Assembly: GCA_002245135.1 (NCBI GenBank) | Contig: NGBS01000600.1 | Coordinates: 1-64,000 of the forward strand | From: Proteromonas lacertae | Lineage: Eukaryota | Length of the DNA stretch: 64,000 nucleotides | Reading direction: 5' to 3' | Shown here: one piece after another, positions 23,266 through 63,957 of the stretch | Layout of the letters: every line of letters begins with the position of its first letter | Numbering within the stretch: the first letter of the stretch is position 1 | The notes under the pieces: generated by a model | What the model was told of the DNA's origin: nothing | The model's database searches: none | What the model saw: the letters and a program-made list of their open reading frames with translations, nothing else | Made by a program: the position numbers and the translations under genes

Positions 23266-26200
23266 TTATTTAATATTTAAGAATTCTTTTGATAATTCTT
23301 TCTTTTCTTCTTCTTTTAATCCATTCAACTAAATTTTACTAACTGAAGTAAATTCATTTAGAAATGATTTTAATTCTGATTTATCGATGTTTTCTTTCAC
23401 TGTTATTGACAATTCATTTAGACTATCAAACAATTTTTCATTTTCTTCTAATAATCTTAATTCTCTTTCATCTAATTCATTTCCTGATATATCTAAATCT
23501 AACAATGGTTCATAATCTTTTAATCTTTCTATTAACACTTTCAATCCTTTCTCACTCATTCCAATATCTATTTCAGTTATAATACAATTATATTCATAAA
23601 ATACTTGAAAGATTATTGATACTGTTTTCAGTAATCATTTCTACAAATCTATCCATAGCATTTACATATAATTTCTACTCCTTCATCACCAATTGGATTA
23701 TTGAATATTGATAGATATTTTACACTTTCTGGCAAACAATCCAGTAATTCTTTTAATCCTTTATAACTGATTCTATTATTTGGATAAATCAACACTGCTA
23801 ATAATTTACTTGTCTAATTAATCGAATATGAGAATCATTGATATTCATATCTATTTCATTAAAATTAAATAATATACTTGACAAATCATATTTATGATAA
23901 TACCTTTCTTTTAGCCTTTTAATACAATAATTTAAATAATAATCTATTTCTTCATCACTCCATGATAAACATTTCATTTTTATAAATGGATAGTTTTTGT
24001 TTTCTAATGATGTTGAACATATTGATTTTAATCCATTTATTCTGATATTATTTCCATTTAGATATATTTCATGACATCGTCCAATTGAATTTATTTTATT
24101 GGTTAATAATATTACACTTTCATCATCTATTGAGATATTACTCAAATTCATTTTATTGCCATATATTAACATTCTTAAATTGTTTAACAATAGTTTAAAT
24201 CCAGTATTACCAATTGGATTATCTATTTAATTATAATTATATAACATTATAATATATACTATGAATTAACAATTTCTCAATATTATCATTATTTTTCACA
24301 TAATTCATCAAATACTCTATTCCATCTGAATCTATATTATTGTTACTTATATCAAGTATGATTTTTTCATGAATATTCATCAAACCAGACAATATGTATT
24401 TCAGTCCAGTAGAAGATAAACCCATTTCTATTATATAATAAATAAAAATAATAATACTTGAACAATTTATTCTATTGTAACAATCTTTTAATAACCATAT
24501 ATGTGGAAATAAGATATTCATTCCTTCATCTCCTATCTCATTTCCATTTATTTGAAGTTCCTTAAGATTTGAAAATGATGATAAATTCGTTTCTATACTT
24601 TTGTATGTTAGGTTATTATCTAAACAATAAAAAATTATCAGATTATACTACTCAAATCTAATACTTCTATCTCTCTCAATTCATTTAATCTTAATGAAAT
24701 GAATAATTTGAAAATACTGTCATCAATACCTAAATTACTTAAATTTAGCACATTATCATTTTTGAAGTATTGTATTAATGTTGGAATGTCTTTGTCAATC
24801 AACATATCTTCTTTACATTTAATATCAATATGATTTTTGAAATAGAATATAGGAATAAGCTTTTAATCCTTCTGCATGAATATTATTGTTGCATGTAATA
24901 TCTAGCTTCTTAAGATTTGGATATTTATATAATTCTTCTGATAATAATATCATACATATATCATTTAAACACATTCCCCTAAGATTCAATTCATTTTCTT
25001 TGTTGATTAATAAATGTAGATGTGGAACTAATAATTTGAACCTTCTTGGACACATTCCATCTACTATATCAATATAATAATATAATATATAATACATGGA
25101 AGATTTATATGTTTTAATTTCATAAGAGGAATTGATTTTATAAATGATTCGATGAAATCAGAACTAGCACTACAACCAAATAAATACAATTCTTTTAGAT
25201 TTGATAATTCAATAAAATATGATAAGAATAATGATTGATGTTGATTTGGAATAGTCATACCTAAGTTAATATAAATGATCATAATAATACCAAATTGGAG
25301 TTTTGCTAAATTCATTAATTTCAAGATTCGGAACAAATAGTTTATTCCTTTCTCACACAAACAAACACAATTTGATTCTATGATAAATACTTCATCATTA
25401 TGTATATTACTATCGATATTAAATATCATTCTATCTAAATAACAGTCATTTTCTCCTTTACATTGGTGACGAATTTGAGATTTCAGTCTATCTTTTATTG
25501 AATCATCTTCTTTGAATACTTTCATCATCAATAATACTGCTAATATTCTCTCATTTGGTTTACTGTTGTAAGATTCTATCAAACTATCTCGAATATTTTC
25601 ATTCTTGTTATATTCCACATAATAGTCTCTCTGAATATCAAATGGAGTTATTTCTATTGAATAATCATTATTGAATATGATTTCTTTTCTCTCATCACAT
25701 CCCATTACACTATTCTTTGACGCTTGTAACATCTTATTCGCTTTCATCATTTCTTTTCTCAACTCTTTCAAACTCAATCTATCTTCACTCTTCACTTTCA
25801 ACATTCTATCTATCATTTCCTTCATATCATCATCACATTCTACATCTAAACTGTATTTACATCTCAGGATATTATTCATTGTTTTATAAATATTATTATC
25901 TTCATTAAATGGTAATTTCTTACAAATCATTTCATATAATATACATCCAATTGACCAAATCACACTTTTATCATTACATTCTAAACCATTCAACTCTTCT
26001 GGACTTTTAAAACACACATCATATATTCTCATATCATCTTCCTTTCTCAACGTATTTAAGTATAAATCACAGATCTTTGCATTGTTATTCTCTTCATATA
26101 TTATGTTACTACTCTTCAAATTGCTAATCACAATGTTATAATCACATAATACATCAAAAATATCACATATTGAACATATCACATTACTTATATCAGTATT

Positions 26201-26527
26201 TGAAATGGATTTATTGTGAATTATCTCTTCTAAATCCAATAAATAGTATTTTCTTCTTAATAACATCATATTATTACCGATTATTTCACAAGCAGATGGA
26301 TAGATGAAGGATAAACAACTATCAATCAAGAATGAGTTATTCTCTAAGAATTCTTTTATTCTAGCTTCTTTAACATTTTCTAAATTTAATATCTTAATAC
26401 TTTTTACATTATTCTGATGCTCTATTACTAAATCCACTTCTTTCTCGCCTTTTTCTACACTTTCTTTTATCTATTATGTATAAATCAATTAACATACTTC
26501 TACTGCATATGATAATAACGAATTCAT
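23266..26527 (-). CDS. Pseudokinase + RI-type leucine-rich repeat protein (possibly disrupted)
   Basis: Kinase fold with SNLKSSNI, CDL and KSPEE in place of HRDLK, DFG and APE. Followed by LRR exons (LDISNNNIDSDG, LDISGNELD). Apparent +1 shifts near 24862, 23800 and 23780, and an in-frame TAG at 23329. Confidence 0.75.
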
Positions 26528-26653
26528 AAAGTTATTGATGAAAGAATCGAAGAAATACATTTTCAAAATATTTTAGTCGTTTCAAATTTATGTAAATTAC
26601 ACACATTTTACATAAAAAGAAAAGAATAGAATAAATAGAATTTTAAATATTAT

Positions 26654-30300: not shown

Positions 30301-32532
30301 AGTGGATATAATTCAATTAATTTACTGTAAGTAGATTGCAATAAATTAAAGTAATATTGAGAAACAGCTGTAAATATTGGTGTATATCGATTATTATGCA
30401 ATGGCCTACAACTAATGATAGTCAAAATTGGTTTAACTCTCAAAAATGGAGATGTTGTTATATTATATAAGATTTTCCAATCAATTTCATTCATATATTG
30501 TCCTTGGTCAATTATGATTATTAATGGTTTAGTTCGTTTATACAATATTCTATCTAATAATGAGATTTCTTTTTCATCTTTCATTATATCTTCATTTACA
30601 TCAATTGGAGTAATTGGTAAAAATAAATTATGCTTCTTTATTTCATCTTTATATTCTTTCTTTTCATCCTCATCTTCTACTAATTCTATTATTTTATGTA
30701 TTAATTGGTTATAAATATAGCATCGAGTATTCATTGAATAAGTATCACCTATTGCATCTACTAAATCATAATTATTATTTATTATAAAAGACTCTAGTTC
30801 AATACATGTTAAATCACTCTTCTCATATTTTTTATTCAAAGCATTTGCTATGGTTTGAATCATTAAAGACTTTCCTGTTCCTGTATCTCCTGTTACTATT
30901 AAAGTACAAGATTCAGGGATTGGCTCGACCAATTTATATAATTGTCTTTTTATTTCACTGATTAACATCTTCATAGGAGCTGTTAAGATTATTTTGTTAT
31001 TTTCGATTTCATTATTCAAAGTGAAACTTCTTTCTATACTTTTATCTGGATAATAGGTGTAAAATACTTCAACAGCTTCACTTTTACCTTTTAAATTGAT
31101 TGGTTCATTCGCTTTGAATTTTAATTGATAATAACTATCAGCACTATTCTTTGTTGTTTTGTCAATTAATATATTTGGACAAATACTTTTATCTCGACAT
31201 TTACATGCTAATTTTTGAGCATTTTGCATCAATCTTGCTGCTGTATTTACCACATCTCCTAACACTCCATATTCTTTACGACTACCAGCTCCTAAACATC
31301 CACAATGAGCTATACCTGTTGTAATACCAACATAAGGACGATATCCTAACGATTCTAATCGATTTACTAAGGTTAATGCTGATAAAACTGCTCTTGTTGG
31401 ATCATCTTCATGAGCTAATGGAGGTAAACCAAATACAGCTAAGAGTGTACTACCTTTATCATCCACTAGGAATTTATTTAGACTACCTTCATAGTCATAT
31501 AATGAAGCTTGAACTGCTACTAATACATCTTGAACTTGTTTTAATTGCATATCTTTAATTTCGATTAATTTACTGGCTTTTAAACCGACATTTACAAATA
31601 AAATTGTCATTGTTCGAACCTCTGCTGCCCAATAAGCAGCATCTTTCTGCATGTATGGTATAACAGCTGCTGCTACAAATTTTTGCATATCTGACAAAAT
31701 CTCTTCATGTTTTTCTCTTTTCAATGATATTAATCTAATCTGTTGAGTTGAGTTTATTATTTTTACACATCCTAATGGTAATGTCGTCCCTTTCATACAA
31801 TCACTCAAATAATGCCAAGAATCAAGAGACACAACGACATCTCCTGGACCGCCTATAATAATACACATAAATAATTAATTTATATGATATATATACACTG
31901 CTCTTCACAATCAAATGCTGCTAATAAAGCAGGACCACATAATAAATATTCTAATCTGCCTAACACACCACCAACATACAATACATACGATTTACCACAT
32001 CCTATTCCACATTTAACTCGGAAAACAACACCTTCGCCAATTTTGTAGTTATGTAACTCTTTTTGTATATCTAATGCACATTGTACAGCTCTGTGAAGAG
32101 TTGTTTTCAAATCCCATTCTTCTACTGTTTCTGAACTCCACTATTAAGAGATATATATTTGAAATATACGACTATCACAACAGCATCACCTACATATTTA
32201 AATACATCACCTCCTGACTTTGTTGTTATCCTCACCAGCGATTCCCAATAACTGTTTAAATATATACTTATATCCTCTGCCCCACGAGCTCCTCTGCTAG
32301 CTACTTTTTCACTGAGATTTGTGTAACCACTTATATCGGCTAATGATGAATAAATATTAAATCATACCAAACATAACAACAGAGTCACACTTTTTAAATG
32401 ATGGAACTTTCACTTCATCCCCTGACTTTTTCGATTTTGCAAGTTGTCTAATAACACATTCTATACAACATCAGAAAATGATGTAATAATACCAGGCACG
32501 AAATCTTCATAACGAGCTAACTTCGCTTCCAT
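26654..32532 (-). CDS. ADCY10/soluble-type adenylyl cyclase (2 cyclase domains) + STAND NTPase + Cys/Asn-rich linker + degenerate class I PDE domain
   Basis: C1 has FADISGYT and KYVGDA; C2 has KFLVDDKG and GDVVNTAARLM; Walker A is GDTGTGKS. The C-terminal part has INDWDFDV, VADVIQT, LSALVKDIVHP and NNPVKPF..W. Several ~30-nt introns and one +1 shift near 28580. Confidence 0.8.
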
Positions 32533-35622: not shown

Positions 35623-38600
35623 ATGACAAATATAGGAATAGATTTAGGTTCTTATTATTATTTAGCATCTAAGCGCGAAGAGACTGGTAATGTTGAGGTT
35701 TTATCAAACAAACTAGACAAACGATTATCATTGTATAAGCTCAAAGTATAATGAATAGGACATTTTTTGCTTATTCAAAAAACAAAAAATACCATCAAGG
35801 AAAGAGTTTAGTATTATTTCCACTATATATCGCTTAGATTTCTGAAGATGTGAACAATGCTATTGTTAATGGTAAAGACTTCTTTGCAAGAAAATATAAT
35901 GATGAAGAATTTAAAATTCTACTAGAAAACTACTATCCGTACAAATTATTAAAAGATGAGGATAATCTACCTTATTTTGAAGTATTATGTATTATAATAT
36001 ACATTTATAGGTTAAGTTTAAAAATGAAAATATAAAATATACTTATAAGGATATTTACAATGCATATTTCAATGAAATTGAAGAAACAATCGCATATAAG
36101 AAATTAGAAGGTGAAAATATATCAAATCAGAAATGGATAATCAGCTATCCGCCATATTATACATCAATTCAAAGAAAAGCTTTAAAAACTTTATGTAATT
36201 TTAGACATTGTAATGATATCATAAAATGCAAAGATATCGTGAGTGAAACAGTAGCGTATGCATTATGTTATGGGTATGAAAACAATGTAAAATATGCAGA
36301 TAAATCAGAAGTACTGCTTTTAGTTGATATTGGATATTCTTGTGCAAGTGTAACATGTGTTAAATATGAGAATGTATAAATCTTATTTATATATTATTTT
36401 ATAGAATAAATGTACTATATTAGGTAATGCATATAATAGGGAAATATGCGGTAGAAATATAGACAAATTGATAGTTGATTATGTAAAAAAAGATATACAA
36501 GAAAGTGATGTATTTAAAGATAGTTATGAAACTATAAGTGTAGATAGAATATGTAATTTAAAAATCTTACAGACAATGATTTCTGTGAAAGAAGTATTGT
36601 CTATTGAAAATAGTTATAGTGTTTTTATTTACCATCTTTACAATGATAAAGACTATGAATCAACATTCAGTAGAGATGATTTTAATTCTGTTTTGAAGAA
36701 TAACAAATATGATGAAAGAATTGAATCATTATTGGATGAATGTGTGAAAAAGTGCAATATTAAAGCAAATGATATAGATGGTATTGTAATTGCAGGTGGA
36801 ACATGTAGAATTTCATTTATTCAAAATACCTTATTAAAATATATGAACAAAAAGATGGAAAAGACATGTACATTAGATAAATCAATTAATATGGAAGAGC
36901 ACATAGCATACGGTTGTAGTTATTATGGATTATTAATGAATGATATATGGAAATATGAATTAATAAATAACGATGAAGATGAGTTATTATTATCAAGTTA
37001 CAATGACATTACAAAGAAAAGAATAATAAAAATGGATAATTATTTGTCTAGATTTCTTTCTGGTTTCAGTGACACTAATATTGAAGAGAATGATAAAGAA
37101 CTAATATATGAATATTTTAAAGATGAAATTAAAATAATTGAATCAATGATTGAAAAGACTAATGATGGTTTAGACGATGAGAAAGAAATGGAAGAAGCCA
37201 ATAAGGTGAAAAATGATATGGAAAGAGATATATTTGCATTGCATCATGATTTATCTCTAATACAGAATAAGATGTTGATTGAAAATGAGAATAACTATCT
37301 ATGGAAAATAATGGAAGACTTACACAATGATAATAATATAAATTCGCTAAATTCAATAAAAGAATATGAGAATAATTTCTATCAAGAATGGGAAGAAAAG
37401 AAAAAGACGAAATTTCATTTAGCTATTCTGTTATGGTATATATATTTAGATATTTGGATATATTATATATATAGTAAACTATCAATTGTTGTGTATCCTA
37501 AACAAAAAGAAGAATATGAAAAGCAAATACTTGAATTGAATAAAGTAGATACTAAGAAGCTTCTAATGTCAAAGTGTATTACCATATGTAGTGTATATTT
37601 TATTAACATTATCTAATAAATAGAGTATAACAAATAAACAAAATGAGATTATAAATAAATTAAGAATTATAATGTATATATGTTTATCTAAAATTTATTA
37701 GTAATGATTACATTTTGGTATTAATATCATCACCTAGAAATTTTGCAGAATCAAGTAAAAAGTATATTTATAAATTAAAAGAAATGATGAAACTAATAAA
37801 TGTTGAACCATCATTAGACAATCTAAACATGTTTTACTCACAGTCTTATATAATGACACAAATGATTGAAAAATATAAAACTGCTATAATAAAATCATTG
37901 TATATTATGTTGTTTATATAAATGTAATAGAAATGAGAAATATGAAAAATGTGAATTTTTTGGAAATATTATTGTTGATTTTTCGGAAGTATTAGAGAGT
38001 ATTGAAGCGTTGAGAAATTATGTAAATGATGATAAGATTGAAAAATCTTCAGATAATTTAAAATATCTCTTTAATGAATTTATAGTATGAATAACTGTGA
38101 TAGTATCCTTAAATAGAAAGTAAACGATAGTTACCAATCAAAGAAGAATGATGTAATTTATAAGTTAGAAGAAAAAAAGTATAGTCATTATATTTCATAA
38201 ATTATAGACAATCAATTCTAAATGAAATAGCTCAAATAACTTTAGATATGCCTAAAGAGATAGAAGTGTTGAAACGTAAGGTTGAGTGTATACAAACAAA
38301 AGAAACTATTGATCTAGCAGAGTGTAAAAAGAATTACATTCAATTAAGTGGTTGTTACTCAGATACAATAGAATCAATTGATAATGAAATAATTGTATTG
38401 TTGTATGAATATAAAATAATAATAGGAGAAAAAGAAAGTACTGATTAGTGAATTAGAAAATTGCATGATAAAGGAAATAAAAGAATCTTATTTAGATGCT
38501 ATTAAAGTGATAGAAAGTAAATCCAATGTAATAGATTCATATAATAATATTAAAGTATATTATATAGTTAAACTAATAAAATTAATAGCTATTAAATGAC

Positions 38601-40411
38601 CTTGAAATTAATTATTTCGAAGAAATGACAAAAATAATGAATGATTTGATGTATAGATTATTTTATAATTTGTATATAGTAAAGAAATAAAAGACAATGT
38701 AAAAGAAATTGAAATTGTAGATAACAACATTCTGAATGAAACAAATGTAAATATTAAAGATATTAATCTCAGAATAAAAGTATGTGTATGATACTAATAA
38801 TATTATATAGCTTTTAATGGATTTAGAGAATAAATATAAACATAAATATATTGTAAAAATTGAAGAGTTAAGGAAAATTTTAAATGAAGTTGAAGAAAAT
38901 GATGAGAAAGTTATATGTATAATAAACGAATCAAACAAAACTCTTAAAGAATTGAATGAAATGAAGCTTATAGGAGTAATTGTTATATATACTGTATGGT
39001 GTAAAGATTATATTTTTTATTAGAGACTTTATGATGAGGTTGAAAGACAGAACAGAATGAATAATGAATATGTGATGAAATATATGTATATACTTTATTA
39101 TATATAATAATATTTTATAAAATAGTGAGAAATATCAAACGCTTTATGATAAAGTAAATGAGAATATAGCCTTATTTATTTCTTTTTACAGTTTCATATT
39201 GACATTTAAGGCATTTCTACAGAATAGATTTAGTATAAGAGTTAAAGCCTTTTGCAAAACAGTTGAAATTGAGTATATTAAAGTAATAGATAAAATGAAA
39301 ATAAAGATACTTGAAAAGAAGTATAAATTACTATTTGAATATTATTTAGTCCTTATTATCATGATATAATACAAGAAGAAGTAGTTGATACATTCTTTAA
39401 TCCATCTCTTTATGATCCAGAATTGCAAACTGAAAATGATGATAATCTGCCTGTAGAATGTGATGTATAATTCTAGCATTAATATAAATAATATTACCAA
39501 AACTTAATATACTTAATTTAAGTTGATTGTGGTTAGAAAAGAAAAATAATATCAAGCCTAGTGTAAAAAGCTTGATTAATCTCAATCAGTTACATTCTAA
39601 TACTCATTTTACAGGTATTATAATTGTGTTTAAAAATTATTATAAATGATATCTTTTGCATCCTGGCTGAATAGTCATTCATATGATGTATAAATGCTAG
39701 TTTTCTTATAAATTTCCATGTAATTTATTGAAATAGAATATGATATTGATTCAGTTATTGATGATTGCATTTCAGATAATGGAAATGTTTTGTTTTTCAG
39801 TTTAAGTATATACTATAAAATATATATAACATCAATAGTTGGAATGAGTGATGAAGATATGAAATATTTATGTAGTAGATTAAATACAATGACAAATGTA
39901 ACTGAGATTAACTTGACATGTATAATAATATTATAATCTTTATTTTAGTTAACTGTATAACTTCAATTGGATTGAATTATTTCTCTCGATATTTCAAGTT
40001 GTTTCCAAATTTAGAAACATTGTTAATAGGGATGAATACTATTGGTGATGGTGATTTGGATTTGTTTTCTAAAAACCTTCGTTTTATTCCTGAATTAAAG
40101 AAATTATCTTTTGCTAGTATATTTCATAATTATTATGTTAATATATAGGTTGTAGATTAGGAGATAATGCTATAAAATCGATGAGCAAGAATATCAACAA
40201 CATAAAAAAGTTTCAGGTATTGATATTGAATAGTAATGAAATAAGTGATAAAGGTGGAGAAATACTAATAGAAAATCTTCAACATTGTTGTTTATTACAA
40301 CAACTTGGTATTTCACAAAACAAATTATCAGATTATGTTGAGTTTGAAAGAAGAATGAAAGAAAATCATCCAAATAAGCAACTAGTAGTTGAAATTAAAT
40401 CTAAAAAGTGA
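35623..40411 (+). CDS. Divergent Hsp70/Hsp110-like ATPase domain + coiled coil + C-terminal RI-type LRRs
   Basis: MTNIGIDLGS, ISYPPYYTSIQRKAL, VSETVAYALCYG, LVDIGYS, ICGRNID, IAGGTCRI and EHIAYGC are Hsp70 NBD motifs. Many tiny coiled-coil exons follow, then LRRs (NTIGDGD, NEISDKGG). A single-gene model is inferred from uninterrupted exon/intron alternation. Confidence 0.65.
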
Positions 40412-49904: not shown

Positions 49905-50059
49905 AAAAGAGAAAAATAATGAAATGAGGCTTGAGTATTATTTGCCAATTTTTCATTTAATTTTGAAATAACCAAAAAAAGACCAAAAATTTACAAATCT
50001 GGGCTTGACACCAACGTATCTAGATTTTTAAATTTAGTCATTAGAAACATTTATAAATC

Positions 50060-52057
50060 ATGAGTTCAGTACCCAGAGGTCCTCCACCACGAGGCCCACC
50101 ACCTAGAGCAATACCAGGTCCACTAGCCAGAGGCGCACCAATGACTCCACCAAGAGGTCCACCAGGCCCACCACCACGTGGTATGGGTCCTTCACCATCA
50201 GGTCCTCCATCAGGTCCACCAATGGGACCTCCTTCTGGTCCTCCACCTAGATCTTTACCAAATGCTGGTCCAATAACTCCCAGAGGTCCACCACCATCAA
50301 GAGGTCCTCCAGGTCCACCTCCTCCATCAATTACACCAAGAGGACCACCTGGACCACCTCCACAAATGTCACCTAGAAGTCTACCAGGTCCTCCACCACG
50401 AATGCCTCCAGACATGAATAATCCTTCAGGTTCTCCTCCATCCAGTTCAATGGGAAATCCTCCAATTAGTAATTTAAATAATCCACCACCACCCAGAGCT
50501 GGTCCTCCACCCCGAATCGCTCCACCTCCTCCTCGTGCAGCACCACCACCATCTATCACACCAGGTGGTCCTCCAATGTCAATGAATCCACCTCCTCCTC
50601 GAATGAGTGTAACTCCACCACCGCCAAGAGCTGGTCCACCTCCACCACAACCATCTCCCTCTAATAATAGTAGTTTACCACCTGCTAGAGGTCCACCACC
50701 TTCTCGAGGTCCTCCACCATCTCGTGGACCACCTCCAATATCTGGTCCTCCTCCTTCAAGAGGACCACCACCTCCAATGTCATCATCAGCAGGTGGACCA
50801 CCACCATCTAGAGGTCCACCACCCATATCAGGACCACCACCATCTCGTGGACCACCACCAGGATTGAAAGGACCACCTATTGCTTCACCACCACCACCAA
50901 GAGGTCCAAGTTTAGTTGGTTTACAAGTAACACCTGATGGTAGAACAAATACTTCGTTAAGAGGAGGTGGTGGTGGAGTATTACCTCCACGTGGTTTACC
51001 TCCACGAGGTCCTCCACCTGGTGCTCCAACTCCATCAGTTAATATTCCTCCAAATGCTACGAATGGAATGCCTAGAGGTCCATTACCTTTACCTCGTGGA
51101 TTACCTCCTCGTGGTCCAATGAGTACAGGTCCAAATGGTTTAGGTGAACCATCTAAACCAGCTCCACCATTACCATTTGGTAGTAATAATAATGGAATGA
51201 TCGAAGGTGAAAGAGATCCAAATGGTAAATTCACAGTTCGAGAAATTCAAGAAGCTTTCCAAGCCTTTGATTTAGATAATAATAACTATATAGGAAATGC
51301 TGAAATTCGTCATGTATTAATCAATATAGGTGAACAAGCAAGTGATGATGAAATAGATGAAATGATTCGAATGGTAGATAAAGATGGTGATAACTTAGTG
51401 AGTTTTGAAGAATTCTATGCGATGGTAACAGGTGGTCAAAGTCCTCCGGCTGGTATAATGGGTGGTGCAACAGTTGGTATAAGTAATAAGACAGTAGGAG
51501 GCCAAGATGACAGTAGTAAGATGATAGAAATGAGACAAAATCGTCGATTGGCTTTACAAGAATTTAATGATGATAATAAATTCAAACCTGAATCAATCAA
51601 GAAGATTTATAAACGATATCAATCATTTGATAAGAATCCAAATGGTTTAGTGAATTACAATGAATTCTGTGATATATTCCAAGTAGAAGCAAGTCCAATA
51701 ATTGAGAAATTGTTTGGAATGTTTGATAAAGAAAAGAGTGGAGAGATTGATTTGAAAGAATTCTTAATCAGTTTGAATAACTTTAGTGGAGCAAGTAAAG
51801 ATGAAAGACTTCGTTTTGCTTTCTTAGTATTTGATGAAGAAGGTAATGGAGTAATAAGTAAAGTAGAATTAATGCGAATATTGAAAGCTAATCACATGGC
51901 AACTTCTGATGCTGAAGTGAAACGAAAAGCTGAAACAATAATGAGTCAAGCTGATAAAGATGGAGATGGTGTAATAACATTTGATGAATTTGTAGTAGTG
52001 AGTAAGAAATATCCAAATATTCTATTTCCAACCTATGCTTCAATCGAAAAGAGTTGA
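50060..52057 (+). CDS. Proline-rich (PPRGPPP) N-terminus fused to calmodulin-like and calcineurin-B-like EF-hands
   Basis: About 370 aa of Pro/Gly/Arg repeats. EF-hands DLDNNNYIGNAE, DKDGDNLVSFEE, DKEKSGEIDLKE, DEEGNGVISKVE and DKDGDGVITFDE. Intronless. Confidence 0.88.
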   Translation: MSSVPRGPPPRGPPPRAIPGPLARGAPMTPPRGPPGPPPRGMGPSPSGPPSGPPMGPPSGPPPRSLPNAGPITPRGPPPSRGPPGPPPPSITPRGPPGPPPQMSPRSLPGPPPRMPPDMNNPSGSPPSSSMGNPPISNLNNPPPPRAGPPPRIAPPPPRAAPPPSITPGGPPMSMNPPPPRMSVTPPPPRAGPPPPQPSPSNNSSLPPARGPPPSRGPPPSRGPPPISGPPPSRGPPPPMSSSAGGPPPSRGPPPISGPPPSRGPPPGLKGPPIASPPPPRGPSLVGLQVTPDGRTNTSLRGGGGGVLPPRGLPPRGPPPGAPTPSVNIPPNATNGMPRGPLPLPRGLPPRGPMSTGPNGLGEPSKPAPPLPFGSNNNGMIEGERDPNGKFTVREIQEAFQAFDLDNNNYIGNAEIRHVLINIGEQASDDEIDEMIRMVDKDGDNLVSFEEFYAMVTGGQSPPAGIMGGATVGISNKTVGGQDDSSKMIEMRQNRRLALQEFNDDNKFKPESIKKIYKRYQSFDKNPNGLVNYNEFCDIFQVEASPIIEKLFGMFDKEKSGEIDLKEFLISLNNFSGASKDERLRFAFLVFDEEGNGVISKVELMRILKANHMATSDAEVKRKAETIMSQADKDGDGVITFDEFVVVSKKYPNILFPTYASIEKS

Positions 52058-52494
52058 AACTGAAAATTTGTTTTATTTTTGATGTTTTTCACTATTTTAG
52101 AGAATATATATTTTTATTTATTTTATTAAAATTGAATATGTTATTTTTAATGAATTGTTTTGTTTTAGAACTGTATATTTTTAAATAATCGTTATAAATA
52201 TGAATGTTATTTCACATAACTAAGAAATTACTTTAATCACAATTAGTTTATATTTAACATAATTTTGTGATAGAAACGTGAATTAAAGGAGAAATATTGA
52301 AAGTTTTATTATATACATGTATTACTCAATTAATTGGGTAAAATATACAAAAACTGTAAATTTTATACCCATCGAATGGTTAATAAATGAGATTTTTGAT
52401 AAAATGAATTTTGAAACGCAAACATATGTCAAGCCTAATTGAGATTTAAATTCATTTTTAACTCATAGAAATAACAATTCGATTTAAGAGCGTA

Positions 52495-55400
52495 ATGAAA
52501 ATAAATGATGAAAAATATGAAACTATTGGAAAAGGTGGTTTTAGCAAAGTGTGCTTAGTAAGACATAATGGTTTAAAGCTAGCTAGAAAAGAAATTAAAA
52601 TAAAAGAAGGATATTTAGAGACAATAAAAAGGGAAATAAAGATTTTAGAAGAGTTGAGAGATCGAAATATCTTGATACTAAAAGATAGTGTAATAATTGA
52701 AGAAGAAAATATATGTTATATATACACAGAGTATTTAAAAAATGGTGATTTATGGAGAATAATATATGAAAAGAAAGTGAAAAAAGAAGATTTCTCAATT
52801 TATGTATATATTATTACAAATATGTTATATATAGGAGATATACAGTTACATGAGTGATTTAATAAATGGTTTAAAGTATATTCATAACAAAGGGATAATT
52901 CATCGAGATTTAAAACCCGGAAATATCTTAGTAGGAGATCATAATGAATTAATAATCAGTGATTTTGGTTTAGCAACTGAAAATGAAAATAGTGATGATG
53001 TATTGAAAGGAACTTATAATTATATGGCTCCTGAATTATATCAAACCAGCCCTCCTCCATATTCAACAGCAAGTGATATATTTTCATTGGGTTGTGTATT
53101 ATATGAATTATACACCTTAAGAATGGCTTTTGAAGGAAAGAACAAAAGAGAGATTATAAATAATATATTTTTAAAAGAAGAATTAGTTTTTACGAGAGTT
53201 AGTGGAGTTGAAATTCCTCAAATAGAAACATTAATAAAGCGTATGTTAGAGAAAGATGTAAATAAAAGAATAAAACTTGATGAAATAGAAGAAGAAATAA
53301 ACAAAATATCAAACACTCCTCCTGTTCCTTCTGTAAGTGATTTATCATTTTCTTCACCATTAATATCTGAAGCTTCAACCGAATTAGCTAGTTTTTCATC
53401 ATATTATTCATTAATTTTATCGTTTTATTTAGAAGGTGGTTATGTAGAAGGTAAAACATTGAATGAAATCATTAAAATGAGCAATAAAGAATTCTTATCC
53501 TATTGGAAAATTGAATTAACAATTGTATAGTAATATATTTATTTATTTAAATCATAGGTGTTATTTCCTTCAATAAATCAAGAAAATCCTCCATATAGTG
53601 AAGAACATGCCAAAGAATTAATTAAGAACAAAGAAATATATCTAAAAGAATTACATATACTGATTGATTTAATTGATCATAACAACCTGGATACAATCAA
53701 CTCAATAATCAAGTTCTTATACTCAATAGAAGATGAAGAATATATTGAAAAACTTACAAAAATAAAAAAATACATTGAAAATTATACAAAAGGATGTGAA
53801 AGTTATAATTCAGTAAATATATTATCTATTATTTCTTTATAGAAGAATTATATAAGATCAATAGAATATCTTGTAACTGCTTTAAATGATTCATCTACAT
53901 ATAATGAAAAATTTAAATGCAAATTCAAAATTGGTGAAAGTTATCGAAATCTAGTATAAATTTTGTGTATAAATGAATGTATAGAATCAATTTAAAGAAT
54001 CTAAAGAGCGTTTTGAATCAGCATTAGTTTTTGCATTTACAAATAGAGAAAAATGTGATTGTTATTTAAATATTGGTTTGTGCAGTGCAAATGTTGAAGA
54101 ATATGAACAAGCTATAAAATATTTTAAAACTGCATTTGAGAATCTCTATGAATTAGAACATCTTAACCCTTTAGATGAAGAATCTTTGCAGTATATTAAC
54201 AGAATGAAATATTTATGTAACAACAATATAGCAATGTGTTATGGCAATCTAGTATAACCATAAAAATATTCATATTATAGGGTGATTTAAATAATTCACT
54301 AGAACATTTTAAGTCTGCATTCCAATTTACTTCTAAAAATGAAGAAAAATACGAATGTTGTTTCACTATCAGTAATTTTTATGAACTAACAGTATTATAC
54401 TTGATATAAATGATAATATAGAGAGAAATTAAAAAAGCAATTGAATATTTAGAATCTGCTTTAGACTTTGCTTCCACAAATGAAAAGATTTACTTATGCA
54501 ACTTTAGAATAGGTGTTTGTGATTTGAAGATTGTATGATTATAAACAATTAATATTATTATAGAGGGAATATGAAAAAGCAAAAGATTATTTTGAATCTG
54601 CATTAAATCTTGCATTAACAGATGAAGAGAATTATAGTTGCAGTTTAAATATTGGTTTATGCTATTTTAATATTGTATAGTAGTATCTAATTTACTTTTA
54701 TTATAGAAAGAGTATGAAAAATCATTAGATCATTATAAATCTGCATTAGGATTTGCAACTATAAAGAAACAAAAATATATGTGTTTTATGAATTTAGGTG
54801 ATTGTTATTTGGGTTTTGTATATATTTCAATTGTTTTATAATAGAATGATAATGAAAACTCATTTAATTGTATTACTTCGGCAATTGACTTTGCTGAATC
54901 AGATGAAGATAGATGCTTATATTATATATATATGTGTAAATATTTATTTAAACTAGGTAATATTGAAGAAGCTATAGATCAATACAATAATGCATTAGAA
55001 TTAGCTAAAAGTGATTATGAGAGATTTAGATGTAATAATGAAATGGGTAAATGCTATTTTGATATTGTATATATATGAATGTGATTATAATGAAAATAGA
55101 AAGATTATGAAGAATCAAAGAAATATTTGAATGAAGCAAGTAAATACATATCCAGTGTTGAAGATGAATTTCAAAGGATAGAATTTGAAGAAATGTTGAA
55201 AAAAGTGAATAATGGAACAAGTGGAGATACTTCTTCTTGTGATTCTAAAATTCTAAATTCTTATTTACGAGGTGGTTTTATAGAAGGTAAAACATTAAAA
55301 GAAAAAGGAGAAGGAGGTTTTAGCAAAGTGTGTTTAGTTGAACATAATGGTTTAAAGCTACATAGAAAAGAAATTAAAATAAAAGAAGGATATTTAGAGA

Positions 55401-58400
55401 CAATAAAAAGGGAAATAAAGATTTTAGAAGAGTTGAGAGATCGAAATATCTTGATACTAAAAGATAGTGTAATAATTGAAGAAGAAAATATATGTTATAT
55501 ATACACAGAGTATTTAAAAAATGGTGATTTATGGAAGCTGATAGATAAAAAGAAGAAAAGTAAAGAAGATTTCTCAGTAAATGTATATGTGATGATATAT
55601 TAATGATATTTAGGAAATGATGATGTATATGAAAGATTTAATAAATGGTTTAAAGTATATTCATAACAAAGGGATAATTCATCGAGATTTAAAACCCGGA
55701 AATATCTTAGTAGGAGATCATAATGAATTAATAATCAGTGATTTTGGTTTAGCAACTGAAAATGAAAATAGTGATGATGTATTGAAAGGAACTTATAATT
55801 ATATGGCTCCTGAATTATATCAAACCAGCCCTCCTCCATATTCAACAGCAAGTGATATATTTTCATTGGGTTGTGTATTATATGAATTATACACCTTAAG
55901 AATGGCTTTTGAAGGAAAGAACAAAAGAGAGATTATAAATAATATATTTTCAAGAGCAGAATTAGATTTTTCGAAAATAAGAGGTGAAAGAATACCTGAA
56001 ATAGAAACATTAATAATGCGAATGTTAGAGAAAGATGTAAATAAAAGAATAAAACTTGATGAAATTGAAGAAAAAATCAGATTATTGTCTTTTACAAATG
56101 GTGAAAATCAATTAAATGAAAATGAAACATTATCTCTTTCTTCATCATATTCATCTCATTTTTCCTTTTATGAATATTTTTCTATTATTATTATTTTCTA
56201 TTTAGAAGGTGGTTGTATAGCAGGTGAAACATTAAAAGAAATAAGTGAAATGAGTGAAGAAGAATTCAATTCATTTTGGAGAGATAAATATTCATCTGTA
56301 TATTTATTTCTCTATTATTACAATAGATATTTTTTCCATCAATCAATCAAGAAAATCCTCCATATACTAAAGAAGATGCAGTTGAATTAAAAAATAATAA
56401 AGATAAATTTCTAAATGAATTACATAAAGTAATTGATTTAATTGAAAATAACAACGAACATCTAATCAACTCAATAATGAATTTCTTAGACTCAATAGAA
56501 GATAGAGAATATATGGAGAAACTTTGTTATAATCATCAATCCCTTACTTTAGTTTTCTATTTAGAAAATGGTTGTATAGCAGGTAAATCATTAAAAGAAA
56601 TAAGTGAAATGAGTGAAGAAGAATTCAATTTATTTTGGAAAGATGAATATTCATCTGTATATTTATTTCTCTATTATTATAATAGTTGTTATTTCCTTCA
56701 ATAAATCAAGATGGTCGACTATTTTCATTAAAAGATTCAAAAGTATTAAAAATTAATAAACATTTATATTTGGATGATTTAATGAGAGTTATTAATTTAC
56801 TCATCAACAGAAATATGAATTATAATAAATTAGTCATATTAGAGTTTTACAAAATAATTAATGAGATTATAGATGATGATAAAACAATTGAAAATTATGT
56901 AGATGGTATTTTATTCTCATATATACCATCTGATTCTATAGTATTTATGTTAATTATTATATTTTTAACAGGTAAAAGAAAGAGTAAAAATGAGTAGAAA
57001 TGAGATAGATTTAGTTGTACAACATAAAAATGACATAAAGAAAGTTAAAGTGATAAATATTGAAGGAATAAAAGAAGATAATATAATCAATATTTGTGAG
57101 GATTACTCTTTATTGGTAGAATATTCTTCATCATTCATATATCCTTCAAGAATATTTCAGTTTAGAGGTGTGGGTGAGTATATGATAATATATAGAGAAT
57201 ATTATTACACTGATTTAGAGGAGGTAATACATAATAAATCATTATCAAGAAGTGATATATTTAGTGTATTATGTTCAGTATGTGATATATTAATAGTATT
57301 AAATGAATATGTTTTAGAAGTTGGTAATTTAAAGAGTAGTAACATACTATATGATAATTATGGTGAAATAAAACTATGTGACTTATGTATGAATTTAATA
57401 AGAAAAATAGAAGATATGAGAATATATGATATCTGCTTCAAAACCCCAGAAGAGTTAAATGGTTTAGAATGTAATGATAAAAGTGTGATTTGGTCAATTG
57501 GCTGTATATTATATGAGATGATAAACAAGAAATTACCATTTAATGAAGATGATAATATGAATAAAACAAAAGAGAATATTATGAGATGTAAATACAGTTT
57601 AGATGTAGAATGTGATGAGATGATGAAACAAATAATAGAAAGAATGTTAAAAGTGAAGAGTGAGGATAGATTGAGTTTAAAAGAGTTGAGAAAAGAAATG
57701 AAAAAAATGAATGAGATATTAAGAGATGAAGATAGTAATTTGATGATATTAAGTGATAAAAAACAGGTTCTATTCAATAATGATAAAAATATTGTTACAA
57801 TGCCAATAATATATCCACCAGAGTATTATATAGAATGTGATAAATATGACAGTATATATAATATATTATTAAATATAATAATAATCTTCCAATAGATATT
57901 AGAGATCATTTTATAGAATTATATAATAATAAACCAAATGAAAGAGTATTATCTATTTTATTAGTGATGAAGTTATACAAATGGGATTATTCAATCCAAG
58001 ATAAAGTGAAATTTCAAATTCATCACCTATGTAAAGAAAGAGGTAGAAATTGTTATTTAGATAGAATTATATTTGATATTTATACTTACGATAATGATAA
58101 GGACATAATCGAAATTGATTCTGAATGTATTTGTTTATGTGAAAAAGGCATGAATTATTTCTTCAGAATATTGAAACTTATTAATCCAATAAAACTCAAT
58201 TTTGGTATAAATTTGATTAATTATATTGATTTAGGTGTTAATCTTCCAGTGAATAATCAACTATTATTTGGGTCATATTTTTCTTTACTACCAAATATAC
58301 GAGAGTTGAATTTTCATAATTGTCATATTAATACAAAGTTTATAGAATCTTTTGTAAAATCCTTACAGTTTATGAAATTAAAACATGTAGATTTTCGATG

Positions 58401-58445
58401 TATTTATTTTTCTTTTTCTTTTTCTTTTTCTTTTTCTTTTTCTTT

Positions 58446-58477
<32 letters not shown>

Positions 58478-61400
58478 TTTCTTTTTCTTTTTCTTTTTCT
58501 ATATTGTTATGAAATAGTCAATCCAATTGGTCCAATTGGTTTTAGATTATTACTTCCCTATTTACATTTATTAATAAACAAGAATAATAAATTAAATCTT
58601 GAAAGAATGAGTTTAAATGATGAATCAATGATGTTACTATCAGAAGAATTATATAAATATCCATACATTGAAAAGATCAATATAGAGAATAATAAGAACA
58701 TTCATATAGAAGGATTAAAACAACTATTTTCAGTATTTTCCTATTCAAAAATAGAATATGATACAAATGGAATTAATTTGAAAGATGTTATAGGAGATGA
58801 TAATCATCAAGAAGATTTGGATGAAGTGAATATAGATAGAGTAAAAGATAATAGGAATATAAAGATGCAAAAAGATATAATTGAAAATGTAGTTTTTAAT
58901 TCTCCTTTATCACCTTCTTCTCATATTAATAATCCTCCTCACAGTCATTCATCATCGCCAATAGATAATTCATCCTATCCAGCATATGATCGTACAATAA
59001 TTTTGTCATTCTATTTAAATTGTGGATTAATAAATAAAAGATCTTTGAAAGAAATAGCTGAAATGAACAGTAAAGAATTGTCATACTTTTGGAATGACGA
59101 TTTAATACCTGTATATTCTGTATTTGTAATGCATAATAGATGTTCTTTCCTTCAATCAATCAAAAAGAACCTCCATATACTCAAGAAGACGCAACAGTCT
59201 TAAAGAATAAAAAAGATAAATTTCTAAATGAATTACATAAAGTAATTGATTTAATTGAAAATAACAACAAAGATCTAGTTAATTCAATAATCAAGTTCTT
59301 ATACTCAATAGAAGATGAAGAATATATCGAAAAACTTACAAAAATAAAAAAATACATTGAAAATTATACAAAAGGATGTGAAAGTTATAATTCAGTAAAT
59401 ATATTATCTATTATTTCTTTATAGAAGAATTATATAAGATCAATAGAATATCTTGTAACTGCTTTAAATGATTCATCTACATATAATGAAAAATTTAAAT
59501 GCAAATTCAAAATTGGTGAAAGTTATCGAAATCTAGTATAAATTTTGTGTATAAATGAATGTATAGAATCAATTTAAAGAATCTAAAGAGCGTTTTGAAT
59601 CAGCATTAGTTTTTGCATTTACAAATAGAGAAAAATGTGATTGTTATTTAAATATTGGTTTGTGCAGTGCAAATGTTGAAGAATATGAACAAGCTATAAA
59701 ATATTTTAAAACTGCATTTGAGAATCTCCTATGAATTAGAACATCTTAACCCTTTAGATGAAGAATCTTTGCAGTATATTAACAGAATGAAATATTTATG
59801 TAACAACAATATAGCAATGTGTTATGGCAATCTAGTATAACCATAAAAATATTCATATTATAGGGTGATTTTAATGATTCACTTAGAACATTTTAAGTCT
59901 GCATTACAATTCACTTCTAAAAATGAAGAAAAATACGAATGTTGTTTTCACTATCAGTAATTTTTATGAACTAACAGTATTATACTTGATATAAATGATA
60001 ATATAGAGAGAAATTAAAAAAGCAATTGAATATTTAGAATCTGCTTTAGACTTTGCTTCCACAAATGAAAAGATTTACTTTATGCAACTTTAGAATAGGT
60101 GTTTGTGATTTGAAGATTGTATGATTATAAACAATTAATATTATTATAGAGGGAATATGAAAAAGCAAAAGATTATTTTGAATCTGCATTAAATCTTGCA
60201 TTAACAGATGAAGAGAATTATAGTTGCAGTTTAAATATTGGTTTATGCTATTTTAATATTGTATAGTAGTATCTAATTTACTTTTATTATAGAAAGAGTA
60301 TGAAAAATCATTAGATCATTATAAATCTGCATTAGGATTTGCAACTATAAAGAAACAAAAATATATGTGTTTTATGAATTTAGGTGATTGTTATTTGGGT
60401 TTTGTATATATTTCAATTGTTTTATAATAGAATGATAATGAAAACTCATTTAATTGTATTACTTCGGCAATTGACTTTGCTGAATCAGATGAAGATAGAT
60501 GCTTATATTATATATATATGTGTAAATATTTATTTAAACTAGGTAATATTGAAGAAGCTATAGATCAATACAATAATGCATTAGAATTAGCTAAAAGTGA
60601 TTATGAGAGATTTAGATGTAATAATGAAATGGGTAAATGCTATTTTGATATTGTATATATATGAATGTGATTATAATGAAAATAGAAAGATTATGAAGAA
60701 TCAAAGAAATATTTGAATGAAGCAAGTAAATACATATCCAGTGTTGAAGATGAATTTCAAAGGATAGAATTTGAAGAAATGTTGAAAAAAGTGAATAATG
60801 GAACAAGTGGAGATACTTCTTTTTGTAATTTTCAAATTGTCAATTTCTATTTGCATAATGGATGTATAGGAAATAAAACATTAAAAGAAGTAAGTGAAAT
60901 GGATGAAGAACAATTCAGTTGGTTTTGGGATGATGATTATTTATCTGTATATTATATTATTATATATTTATCTACTTCATTATAGATATTATTCCCTTCA
61001 ATTAATCAAGAATATCCTGCATTTTCATTAGAGGATTCTAAAGTTTTAAAATCAAATAAAGACAAGTTTTTACCATATTTAATGAAAATAGTCAGTTTAC
61101 TGATAAAAAGAAATGATGATGTGAAAGAAAAGAAATCGTTAATTGCTGAAAGAATGAATGGTGAATCAATAATAAACATTAAAGAATTATTAGTAGATAT
61201 AGAAATTCCAGAATTAATAAAGTATATAAAAAGTAAATATGGCGAAGTGAATCTGAGTAATATTGGATTAGATGATGTGTTATTTAAATCATTCATTTCG
61301 TTGAGATCAAATGAATTGAAAGAAATAGAAGTTTTTGATATAAGCAGTATAAATTAATTATTTTAATATTACATAGATAATAATCTAACATATAAAAGTA

Positions 61401-63957
61401 TTCAAACACTTATAAATAGTTTATCATTTTTCACCAATGTTAAAGAAGTTCAATTATTTGGTAATAGAATAGGAGATTTAGGGATGCTTGTATTATCTCC
61501 ACATTTGAATTTACTAAAAGTGTTATTATGATAAAATAAACTGCAGTAGTATAATTGATATGATTTTAATATGAAATAGAAATGGGATTATCATCGATTG
61601 GATTAAGATATTTAGTGGATGGATTGAAGAATAGTCATGAAAAGATAATACTTGATATAAGTGAAAATAATATTGATTCAGATGGAATAGAATACTTGAT
61701 GAATAATATGAAAGAAAATGACAATATTGAAAAGTTATTAATTCATGGTATATTTTTATATTTATATTATAATAAACAATAGATAATCCAATTAAAGATA
61801 TTGGATTTGATTTATTGTTAGAGAAGTTGAATATGTTAGTTTATTGTCATGAAATGGATTTGAGTAATATAATAATAAATGATGAAAGTGTGTTATTATT
61901 AACAAACCAAATATATTCAATAAAAAGATGTTATACAATAAATATGAATGGAAATGGTGTAAGTATGAATAGATTAAAATCAATATGTTCAAAATCATTA
62001 GAAAGTGAAGAATATCCATTTATTGAGATGAAATGTAAAGACTGGAGAAATGAAGAATTAGAATCTTATTTGAATTATTGTATAAAGAAGAAGAGAAGAG
62101 ATAATAGAAGATATGATTTTTCAAATTTAACACTCAATGATTCACATATGTCCTTAATAAAGCAGATGAAATATTCCGAGATTGATTTATCAAATAATGA
62201 TATTAGTAGTAAAGGATTAAGAGAATTAACAAATTCTTTTACAAGACAATCAATATTTGTTTCAATCCATAACAATGAAATTGGAGATGAAGGAGTAGAA
62301 ATAATATGCAAATATATTGACAAATTTGTAGAAAGAGATGAAAAAGAAAATCCCAAATCATTAAATCTATGTAGTATATATTTAATCATGAAATATAATC
62401 ATATATATTTGAATAGAAATAGGAATGAGTGAGAAAGGATTAAGAATGTTAATAGAAAGATTAAGAGACTATTATCCATTGAAAGAAATAAATCTAGAAA
62501 GTAATAAATTTAGTGATAAAAAATCAGAGTTTGAAAGAATAAAAAGTGATAGAAAATTAAATACAGAATATAATAAAGAAAGAATGAATATACTATTATC
62601 TAATTATAGCGGAGGGGGAAATAATGGTGGAAGAAGATTAGGTGGTGGTGGAAAAATGGGAAATGGAAATGGAAATGGAGGTGATGGAAATAGAACAGCT
62701 TTATTTTATACTAATTATTCACCAGCTCTTCCTTCAAGTAAATCTTTTTATTTATACAATGCTCCTCTTCAGTATAAAACATTAACAGAAATAAGTGATA
62801 TGGATTTTGAAGAATTTAATATGTATTGGAGAGATAAATTTTTATATGTATTTAGATAATATGTTTAAGTTAATATAATAGGTATTATTTCCAACAATTG
62901 ATCAAGATGATCCAAAATTTCCAATAGAAGATTCAATTGAATTAATAAACCAGAAAGATAAATTCATTGGATGTATAAGAAAGATATTTAATTTATTGAA
63001 GAAAGAAAATGAAGGCAGAAAAGAAAACCATTTATTTATAATCGAATTATACAAATTTATTTCAAAGAATATTAACAGTAAAGAAAAAACAAAGAACTTC
63101 TTAATTGATGATATTATATTTACATATCTAATATGTCCAACTCTAGTATTTTTATTGTTTTAATAGTATAGATAAAATCAGGATTAAACAAAAATAGTAA
63201 TGAAACAGATTTACAACTCCAATTTGAAAGAAAAAATAAAATAATGAAAATAATAAATGTTGAAAAAATAAAAAAAAATAGGAGAAATGATTTTACAATA
63301 AAAAACAGTCTGTTGTGTAAGTATTGTAATACTAATACCTGCCAATTTAGTGTTTTTGAATTGAGTGTTAAAGGTGGATATATGTTAGTGTGGAGAGATT
63401 TTTATAATAGAGATTTAAAGAGAATGAATAAATTAAATCTGGATATTTCATTTATTGTTTTAGAATCAGTAAAATTATGCAAAATTTTAATATCTTTACA
63501 AAGTAAAAGAATGATAATATACAATTTAAAAACATCTAATATAATAATTGATAATGATGGTAAACTAAAACTATGTGATTTGTTTCTTAATAATTTACGA
63601 TATTCAGATGATTTAACAATCGAAGATATCTGTTATAAAAGCCCTGAAGAATTATGCGGATATGAGTGTAATGATAAAAGCATAATTTGGATTTTAGGTT
63701 GTATATTATATGAAATATTAACCTATAAATTACCATTTAATAAAGAAGATAATATCGAAAAAACAAAAGATAATATAAGGAGATGTAGATATGAAGAAGA
63801 TTTATTAAATAATAATTTGATGAAAGAAGTAATAAGTGAAATTTTTGTTATTAAGTATGTAAATAGAATAAGTTTAGAAGATTTGAAAAATAAAATGGAG
63901 AGTATATTTGATTCTACATTAAAAATAGTTGATAATTACAATGTAGTTAATATTTGA
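52495..63957 (+). CDS. Modular mega-gene: kinase-X-TPR-X'-kinase-X-X-pseudokinase-LRR-X-TPR-X-LRR-X-pseudokinase
   Basis: ORF pieces join through ~30-nt GT-AG introns. Two intact NEK-like kinases (GxGGFS, HRDLKPGN, DFG, APE), two pseudokinases (GNLKSSN and YNLKTSN, CDL), TPR-like and RI-LRR exons. +1 shifts at 59728, 59883, 59947, 60080 and ~61520. Confidence 0.7.
52525..55950. repeat. Near-identical kinase duplication (~52525-53170 and ~55315-55950)
   Basis: Long exact nucleotide matches across both kinase exons; the intron and flanks differ. Confidence 0.9.
53700..60820. repeat. ~1.5-kb TPR block duplication (~53700-55235 and ~59282-60820), introns included
   Basis: Identical antisense ORFs at 55026 and 60612 (offset 5,586). 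Introns are identical between the copies. Confidence 0.93.
58406..58500. repeat. (TCTTTT)n microsatellite inside an intron
   Basis: Visible hexamer run in the intron beginning near 58400. Confidence 0.9.

Follow-up and report, generated by a model that had tools for sequence, protein, structure and literature searches.

Kinase folds joined to repeat arrays, and repeat arrays that are rearranged exon by exon, have both been described in microbial and algal eukaryotes. Giardia encodes 198 Nek kinases, of which 71% are likely inactive and 67% carry ankyrin arrays, and the available part of that survey gives them no immune role (PMC3218828). In Ectocarpus, 42-aa exons encoding tetratricopeptide repeats (TPRs) are shuffled, and the accessible account places spare exons within introns (PMC3341825). 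Here we compare with these systems a locus of Proteromonas lacertae that lies at 52495..63957 on the forward strand of contig NGBS01000600.1 (assembly GCA_002245135.1); positions 1 to 64,000 of this contig, 64,000 nt in all, are the stretch that was analysed and are called the window below. On balance, and with modest confidence, sequence comparison leads us to favor one intron-rich gene whose modules belong to a protist kinase/pseudokinase family and were likely joined through recombination at a repeated spacer domain, S; the product is likely a cytosolic, ligand-gated kinase scaffold.

Organization of the gene

The window is eukaryotic, with a GC content mostly of 22-30% and very short GT..AG introns, and it includes ordinary genes, CCT-alpha among them. 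Our gene model was predicted by dynamic programming and then curated against the internal duplicates and a stand-alone paralog in the same window. It starts with an ATG at 52495 and ends with a TGA at 63957. All 33 of its 33 introns are GT..AG, with a median length of 31 nt; 32 measure 26-44 nt and one is a 118-nt microsatellite intron, and GC content is 15% in introns versus 24% in exons. Similar intron lengths, with a mode of 30 nt, are reported for Blastocystis (PMC5608401). Model introns at 58354, 59835-59886, 59977-60049, 61490 and 63902 were dropped, as they dodge frameshifts or find no support in the paralog. The modules follow one another in the order K1-S1-TPR1-s-K2-S2-S3-PK1-linker-LRRa-S4-TPR2-S5-LRRb-S6-PK2, where s is a truncated S, K a kinase, PK a pseudokinase and LRR a leucine-rich repeat region resembling that of ribonuclease inhibitor (RI).

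52495..63957 (+): whole gene model, 34 exons and 33 introns, encoding 3442 aa when the five +1 sites are written as X
52495..53305 (+): K1, Ser/Thr-type kinase with all catalytic motifs present
53420..53758 (+): S1, OGFr_N-like domain, with a phase-0 intron at 53525-53557
53843..55210 (+): TPR array 1, about ten 37-aa units on five 111-nt, one 222-nt and one 267-nt exons, introns all phase 0
55253..55300 (+): truncated S of 16 N-terminal residues, read in frame into the first K2 strand
55289..56084 (+): K2, kinase, 88% amino acid identity to K1, with DNA blocks of 100% identity alternating with blocks of 70-80%
56193..56521 (+): S2, OGFr_N-like domain
56552..56925 (+): S3, extended at the C-terminus by a segment whose last part aligns with the short first exon of the paralog
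56972..57715 (+): PK1, pseudokinase without Gly-loop or HRD-Asp and with CDL for DFG; NEK2 is narrowly its best solved match
57716..58200 (+): linker, by sequence comparison kept in the paralog, its start also in relatives P0001 and P0002
58201..58747 (+): LRRa, first part of a split RI-like LRR domain, containing the 118-nt microsatellite intron (58400-58517)
59003..59340 (+): S4; near 59288 its match with the S1-TPR1 region climbs abruptly, from 66-76% to 98-100% identity
59425..60796 (+): TPR array 2, near-identical to array 1, with four +1 insertions
60839..61123 (+): S5; near-identity to the TPR1 region stops just before it, at about 60822
61181..62538 (+): LRRb, second part of the LRR domain, with a fifth +1 site near 61516-61519
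62743..63007 (+): S6, OGFr_N-like domain, behind a Gly/Asn-rich linker
63172..63957 (+): PK2, pseudokinase that shares 43% identity with PK1, ending in the stop codon of the gene
23270..26560 (-): stand-alone pseudokinase-LRR paralog, about 55% identity, LRR unsplit, at least two frameshifts needed

K1 and K2 retain the Gly-loop, Lys, HRD, DFG and APE motifs intact and match Pfam Pkinase, while in PK1 and PK2 the Gly-loop and the HRD aspartate are missing and DFG reads CDL. The same catalytic losses are found in the paralog and in two relatives at 43-48% identity, which indicates that the pseudokinase is a conserved family and not the result of recent decay. By the motif table, the chain holds at least two kinase-fold domains, kinase together with pseudokinase, as tandem kinases do. 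The best PDB matches of the kinase domains are GRK2/BRAF, MARK2/DDR2/NEK1 and NEK2, with no plant receptor-like kinase among them. A pseudokinase profile search of solved structures placed NEK2 first (E 2e-16) and SNRK at E 3e-15; for the active kinases, NEK did not rank first. Scans of metagenome loci with the pseudokinase alignment and with the family member P0026 returned no relative. A 44-nt intron at 57852-57895 (+) is absent from the paralog, and P0001 and P0002 end near this point, as if at an intron.

Both TPR arrays match Pfam TPR models below the curated cut-offs, and the two are ~99% identical, introns included. Five of the roughly ten units per array occupy a 111-nt exon of their own and two exons hold two units each, separated by introns of 27-33 nt; the LRRs are not arranged one per exon. 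Pfam LRR_6 or LRR_1, always under cut-off, was matched in 4 of 6 LRR exon pieces, and nine repeats can be recognized by pattern. Amino acids 5-527 of the paralog correspond to residues 1330-1870 of the large protein, and 543-923 to residues 2585-2985. Because the paralog LRR is unsplit and matches both sides, the two LRR blocks are, by this alignment, one RI-like LRR domain of a pseudokinase-LRR gene that is split by an S4-TPR2-S5 insert of ~715 aa. The initial annotation had counted two RI-type LRR blocks, a figure that this alignment replaces with two parts of a single domain. The remainder of its inventory is borne out: two intact kinases and two pseudokinases (by the motif table), two TPR arrays whose near-identity is the recent internal duplication it had noted, seven spacer copies (of which six are complete and one is a 16-aa stub), and no NACHT/NB-ARC domain, for which the scanned exon pieces gave no Pfam match. 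GxxxxGKT occurs only twice, in S1 and the S stub, and as S folds into helices we rejected it as a Walker A motif. A second LRR fusion is present in the window at 35623-40411 (+), with a divergent Hsp70-like N-terminus (Pfam E 4e-16), a long middle region and RI-like LRRs; its model requires three frameshifts or other introns near 39550-39740.

We consider it quite probable, from features of the sequence, that the whole locus is expressed as one transcript. None of the seven inter-module linkers contains an in-frame stop (individual P values of 0.002-0.28, given that non-coding sequence of the window has 0.081 stops per codon). The start of K2 sits within the truncated S, where there is no space for a gene boundary. 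A profile search with the window spacers against 1.84 billion proteins found 13 proteins, the ten of which that were looked up are all Logan proteins, and an uninterrupted S is present in 4 of these 13 and in member P0026. In P0008, P0009, P0018 and P0026 this S is contiguous across the predicted splice junction, in agreement with our exon joins, and P0012 runs S directly into TPR. Some protists create stop codons by polyadenylation, which leads to chimeric gene models (PMC5608401), and the available text of a second study reports that some Blastocystis retain genomic stops (PMC12129017). Two or more adjacent genes, or an assembly error in the 1.5-kb TPR repeat, whose copies are ~99% identical, would make the large gene a modeling artefact. 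We regard this as improbable. In addition to the stop-free junctions and the K2 start, the TGTTTGTT poly(A)-stop motif of Blastocystis (PMC5608401) is absent from the plus strand of the gene. The paralog is colinear with the gene on both flanks of the ~715-aa insert, so that both flanks derive from one ancestral gene, which counts against a chimeric assembly join; moreover, the S copies differ by 35-45%, more than an assembler can create. A possible promoter element, TTTGAAAC, lies at 52410 (+), 85 nt upstream of the start of the gene, and at 26586 (-), 26 nt upstream of that of the paralog; five copies occur across the window and none within the gene.

The spacer domain and the OGFr_N fold

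In each of the six full S copies, a phase-0 intron interrupts the domain at a shared position. Modeling with AlphaFold, using an alignment led by the copy of a relative, yielded a helical domain (predicted local distance difference test score, pLDDT, 92.5; predicted template modeling score, pTM, 0.85); a single-sequence fold of P0026 was of low confidence (pLDDT 33). A likeness to OGFr_N had been proposed before the fold and profile tests were made; what this domain does at the molecular level is poorly understood, also for the human protein (PMC11062026). In a Foldseek search of a viral library the top match of the S model was an OGFr protein (prob 0.97, query TM-score (TMq) 0.64, E 0.26), and the next row had a prob of 0.10. 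For profile comparisons, 147 OGFr-like stretches from 156 loci were collected by motif; all eight of those tested match PF04664, seven over cut-off. A hidden Markov model (HMM) of the spacer reached at least 5 bits with 62 of the 147 OGFr-like proteins, compared with 3 of 1470 sequences after shuffling and 2 of 147 after reversal. HHalign aligned S with OGFr_N over ~63 columns at 93.8% (E 1.8e-7), using 40 of the 147 stretches, some of them chosen for high score; with the N-terminal half of the window spacers alone, which lies outside the motif used for collecting the set, it gave 90% and E 1.7e-6. In the reverse test, an OGFr HMM against the spacers, the signal was weak (best 7.4 bits).

From these results we predict S to be an OGFr_N-related folded domain, degenerate but with a recognizable fold, and not a mere linker. 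Two observations speak against the assignment: the Foldseek E of 0.26 is not significant, and Pfam OGFr_N (PF04664) matched none of 23 S members even at E 10, nor any of 12 half-domains. A Foldseek search of the PDB with S returned nothing at E <= 0.001, a search that a solved relative may escape, and a sequence profile search of the PDB gave nothing better than E 0.028. S spans only the N-terminal part of OGFr_N, and the polar motif that precedes LFP in that domain (His, Gln-Trp) is kept in 0 of 10 complete S copies; the invariance of this motif in the OGFr set follows from its use in collecting the set. The missing His and Gln-Trp suggest that S is likely non-catalytic. Further searches for S found no additional members: a single spacer matched 0 of 465 candidates among proteins of 194-2000 aa, alignment A7 matched 0 of 7992 of 455-2000 aa (a weak test, in which a long row had shifted the length window upward), P0009 had no match in phages, and a permuted spacer exon had no usable match in the ESM Atlas.

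OGFr_N itself is found in other fusions. Among 13 long viral ORFs (open reading frames) it is joined to NADAR in two, one of them with FYVE, to ubiquitin hydrolase in three, to UBA in one and to a viral methyltransferase polyprotein in one (loci L193, L204, L189, L205, L206, L202 and L217), and the available text of a preprint describes amphibian retroviruses that captured OGFr in pol (bioRxiv 10.1101/2021.11.23.469661). The 51 genes around 26 bacterial OGFr loci include no conserved neighbor class. A HAD-family phosphatase adjoins OGFr_N in three of the 26 (L171, L174 and L175), which may be from related genomes.

Construction of the gene and integrity of its frame

The ends of the duplicated TPR cassette point to how the gene was built. 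Between the S1-TPR1 and S4-TPR2 regions identity is 66-76% over most of S, rises to 98-100% from the S tail onward and drops just before the next S. Since the cassette thus ends in or beside S copies, S is likely a recombination hinge, a proposal based on this one well-resolved cassette and on the fusion of the S stub to K2. We propose that a kinase-S unit fused with a pseudokinase-LRR gene, and that ectopic crossover or conversion between S copies would preserve the frame while copying whole cassettes. Patchy conversion may likewise homogenize K1 and K2, whose alternating blocks of high and lower identity are of the kind that gene conversion leaves. The locus would then record ongoing shuffling of modules, in which a cassette with its ends at the spacer was placed into an LRR domain. 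In a genome with 30-nt introns, which are too short for classical exon shuffling, shuffling at S hinges may be a way of generating receptor-like diversity.

Relatives show a kinase-S order (P0008, P0013, P0015 and P0018), S followed by TPR (P0012), or S with another repeat (P0008, P0009, P0018 and P0026), which indicates that the family is modular and that its domain order varies, the relatives being from other species or diverged paralogs. The further swappable module that follows S in the last four is a ~75-aa repeat domain with a Trp-Trp end; the three that were scanned gave no convincing Pfam match. The initial annotation had inferred a lineage-specific, rapidly shuffled family. A lineage-restricted modular family with variable domain order is supported by the unsplit paralog and by the kinase-S, S-TPR and kinase-S-other-repeat relatives, but what is shuffled appears to be whole modules and not repeats. 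The two TPR arrays are colinear, with 95-100% identity per 60-nt window and the same repeat order, their 27-33-nt introns are too small for spare exons, and the LRRs are not one per exon, so the suggested parallel with Ectocarpus-type repeat shuffling finds no support in the two arrays available. Only one synonymous and three non-synonymous changes separate array 1 from array 2, and within an array the repeats are saturated (8-49% amino acid identity, with non-synonymous and synonymous differences per site, pN and pS, about equal).

A continuous exon chain, as first annotated, is found from ATG to TGA across the 33 GT..AG introns, but only when five single-base insertions are skipped, all of them in the second half; such skipping yields the open frame of 3442 aa. 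TPR array 2 carries four +1 homopolymer insertions relative to array 1, at 59728, 59883, 59945 and 60079, and the fifth site, in LRRb, was placed by eye from the frame of the paralog. At each of the five a base run is one longer, and there is no deletion and no nonsense substitution. Besides the four indels, TPR2 and TPR1 differ by five substitutions in 1.5 kb, and TPR2 has a 41-bp tract with four substitutions. A bias toward one-base run extension fits sequencing or consensus error. Given that all five events are run extensions and that TPR2 holds few substitutions, we lean toward consensus error as their cause, which leaves real decay a considerable but lesser chance. Programmed +1 frameshifting of the Euplotes type was considered and rejected, as the sites share no AAA-stop context.

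Several observations weigh against an intact, functional gene. In the assembled sequence the first stop is met at aa 2177, and the gene as it stands is broken. The paralog is frameshifted too, at two sites or more, and two control genes of the window have no frameshift, one of them RRP9-like and the other a 3461-aa ORF whose repeats are 93% identical. With the paralog frameshifted and the controls intact, decay in a birth-and-death family fits as well as error. The ratio of non-synonymous to synonymous substitution rates (dN/dS) is 0.36-0.92 in 8 of 8 domain pairs, none above 1, which indicates weak constraint, and in the relatives DFG or HRD residues are often missing from the kinases (4 of the 4 that have that segment). 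The stop codon lies 43 nt before the window end, so one more exon is possible. The locus could on these grounds be a side product, now in decay, of kinase genes expanding by birth and death, fused by recombination, with real frameshifts and at most a truncated protein of ~2180 aa; the relaxed dN/dS and the catalytic losses would be expected, and the Giardia Nek expansion shows turnover of this kind (PMC3218828). We consider this unlikely, although not to be dismissed lightly. Its five events would all have to be +1 run extensions, with neither a deletion nor a nonsense substitution among them; within 1.5 kb, four indels to only five substitutions would be an unnatural ratio; and splice sites are intact at 33 of 33 introns.

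Elsewhere in the window, the 3461-aa control ORF, stop-free at 2584-12969 (-), contains tandem repeats of ~360 aa, with 93% identity across 3.3 kb, and C-terminal teneurin-type EGF domains, and looks like a surface or secreted protein. The ORF at 29862-31874 (-) presumably encodes, judged by eye, a nucleotide cyclase domain with a P-loop ATPase behind it, an arrangement like that of soluble adenylyl cyclase. Immediately upstream of the large gene, a 666-aa frame at 50057-52057 (+) has a long Pro/Gly/Arg-rich region and, by eye, EF-hand-like repeats.

Possible function and relation to known systems

As a kinase scaffold, the protein could use its TPR and RI-type LRR solenoids to bind protein partners, its pseudokinases might act as allosteric brakes or scaffolds, and K1 and K2 would supply the phosphorylation output; S may serve as a non-catalytic docking or sensing module next to each unit. 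No clear transmembrane segment was found in the protein, in which the most hydrophobic 19-mer reaches a maximum of 1.9, not strongly hydrophobic, and lies within pseudokinase helices. That the ligand sensed is foreign we regard as doubtful. An alternative, by analogy with plant kinase-fusion proteins, is an innate immune receptor free of nucleoside triphosphatase (NTPase) domains, in which TPR, LRR, pseudokinase and OGFr-like modules would be sensors or decoys for viral and bacterial proteins and binding would free the kinases. The pairing of kinase and pseudokinase decoy modeled for plant tandem kinases in the available text (PMC8761531), phase-0 repeat exons like those described for Ectocarpus in the consulted part of its report (PMC3341825), the varied architectures among relatives, and the viral OGFr_N fusions, where NADAR, ubiquitin hydrolase and methyltransferase partners point to conflict biology, are consistent with such a receptor. 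The unchanged TPR order, introns too short for spare exons, the lack of any dN/dS above 1 and the bacterial OGFr loci without a conserved neighbor class argue against it, and we hold the immune alternative to be rather unlikely. If true, it would constitute a new class of NTPase-free sensor in a microbial eukaryote.

A more elaborate variant would give S, as a catalytically dead OGFr fold, two roles in an NTPase-free innate receptor family. The protein domain would sense ADP-ribose-type marks or be a decoy that draws in enzymes of viruses and bacteria, and its DNA would be the hinge at which crossovers exchange TPR, LRR, kinase and pseudokinase cassettes without loss of frame, recombination among spacer copies thus yielding new receptor architectures. 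This combination is a long shot. A link between OGFr and ADP-ribose was not found in the literature on OGFr function that was searched, nor by a term search in the available text of PMC9503650. A degenerate OGFr-like copy reused seven times beside kinases provides a tractable handle on ligand binding by intact versus degenerate OGFr.

Returning to the kinase/pseudokinase gene that we favor, the locus appears to be an unusual fusion of recent assembly; it is not an NLR, and nothing in its sequence establishes it as a shuffled receptor of the Ectocarpus type. The Ectocarpus NB-ARC-TPR and LRR-ROCO genes have fixed-length TPR exons, as here, of 42 aa in the available description compared with 37 aa in P. 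lacertae (PMC3341825). In contrast to those genes, this one contains no NB-ARC or ROC-COR, has no spare intronic exons and the same repeat order in both arrays, and appears to be shuffled by whole modules. Plant tandem kinases (RPG1, WTK1-3), as presented in the available part of the source, are cytosolic chains of active and dead kinases without an NTPase, and so resemble the protein described here (PMC8761531). They are immune receptors, whereas the present protein has large TPR and LRR arrays and no plant receptor-like kinase among its best PDB matches. The kinatases of kinetoplastids are also protist proteins with two pseudokinases and LRRs, and the accessible text proposes them as signaling scaffolds (PMC2175518). 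They carry a dual-specificity phosphatase, in place of which we find active kinases, TPR and S (PMC2175518); the scanned exon pieces gave no match to such a phosphatase, and no unassigned stretch of the map fits one.

With OGFr_N (PF04664), known from OGFR/OGFRL1 and from bacterial and viral homologues, S shares a predicted fold and a profile match over ~63 columns; it differs in comprising only the N-terminal part, in having lost the motif, in scoring below Pfam detection and in being repeated seven times between modules. We found no description of a family built on a repeated OGFr-like domain in the literature searched, most subscription journals being outside it. The Giardia Nek expansion, as far as its available description goes, resembles the locus in that the kinase family of a protist comprises many pseudokinases, carries repeat arrays that are mobile and undergoes gene turnover (PMC3218828), and NEK2 is, by a small margin, the best solved match of our pseudokinase profile. 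Giardia Neks carry ankyrin in that description, whereas here TPR and RI-like LRR arrays occur without ankyrin, with four kinase folds per chain and a repeated OGFr-like domain. By analogy, the architecture may fit this non-immune Nek-ankyrin counterpart equally well as an immune receptor. Kinase-repeat fusion families are known in protists, and the degenerate OGFr-like domain of this locus was previously unrecognized.

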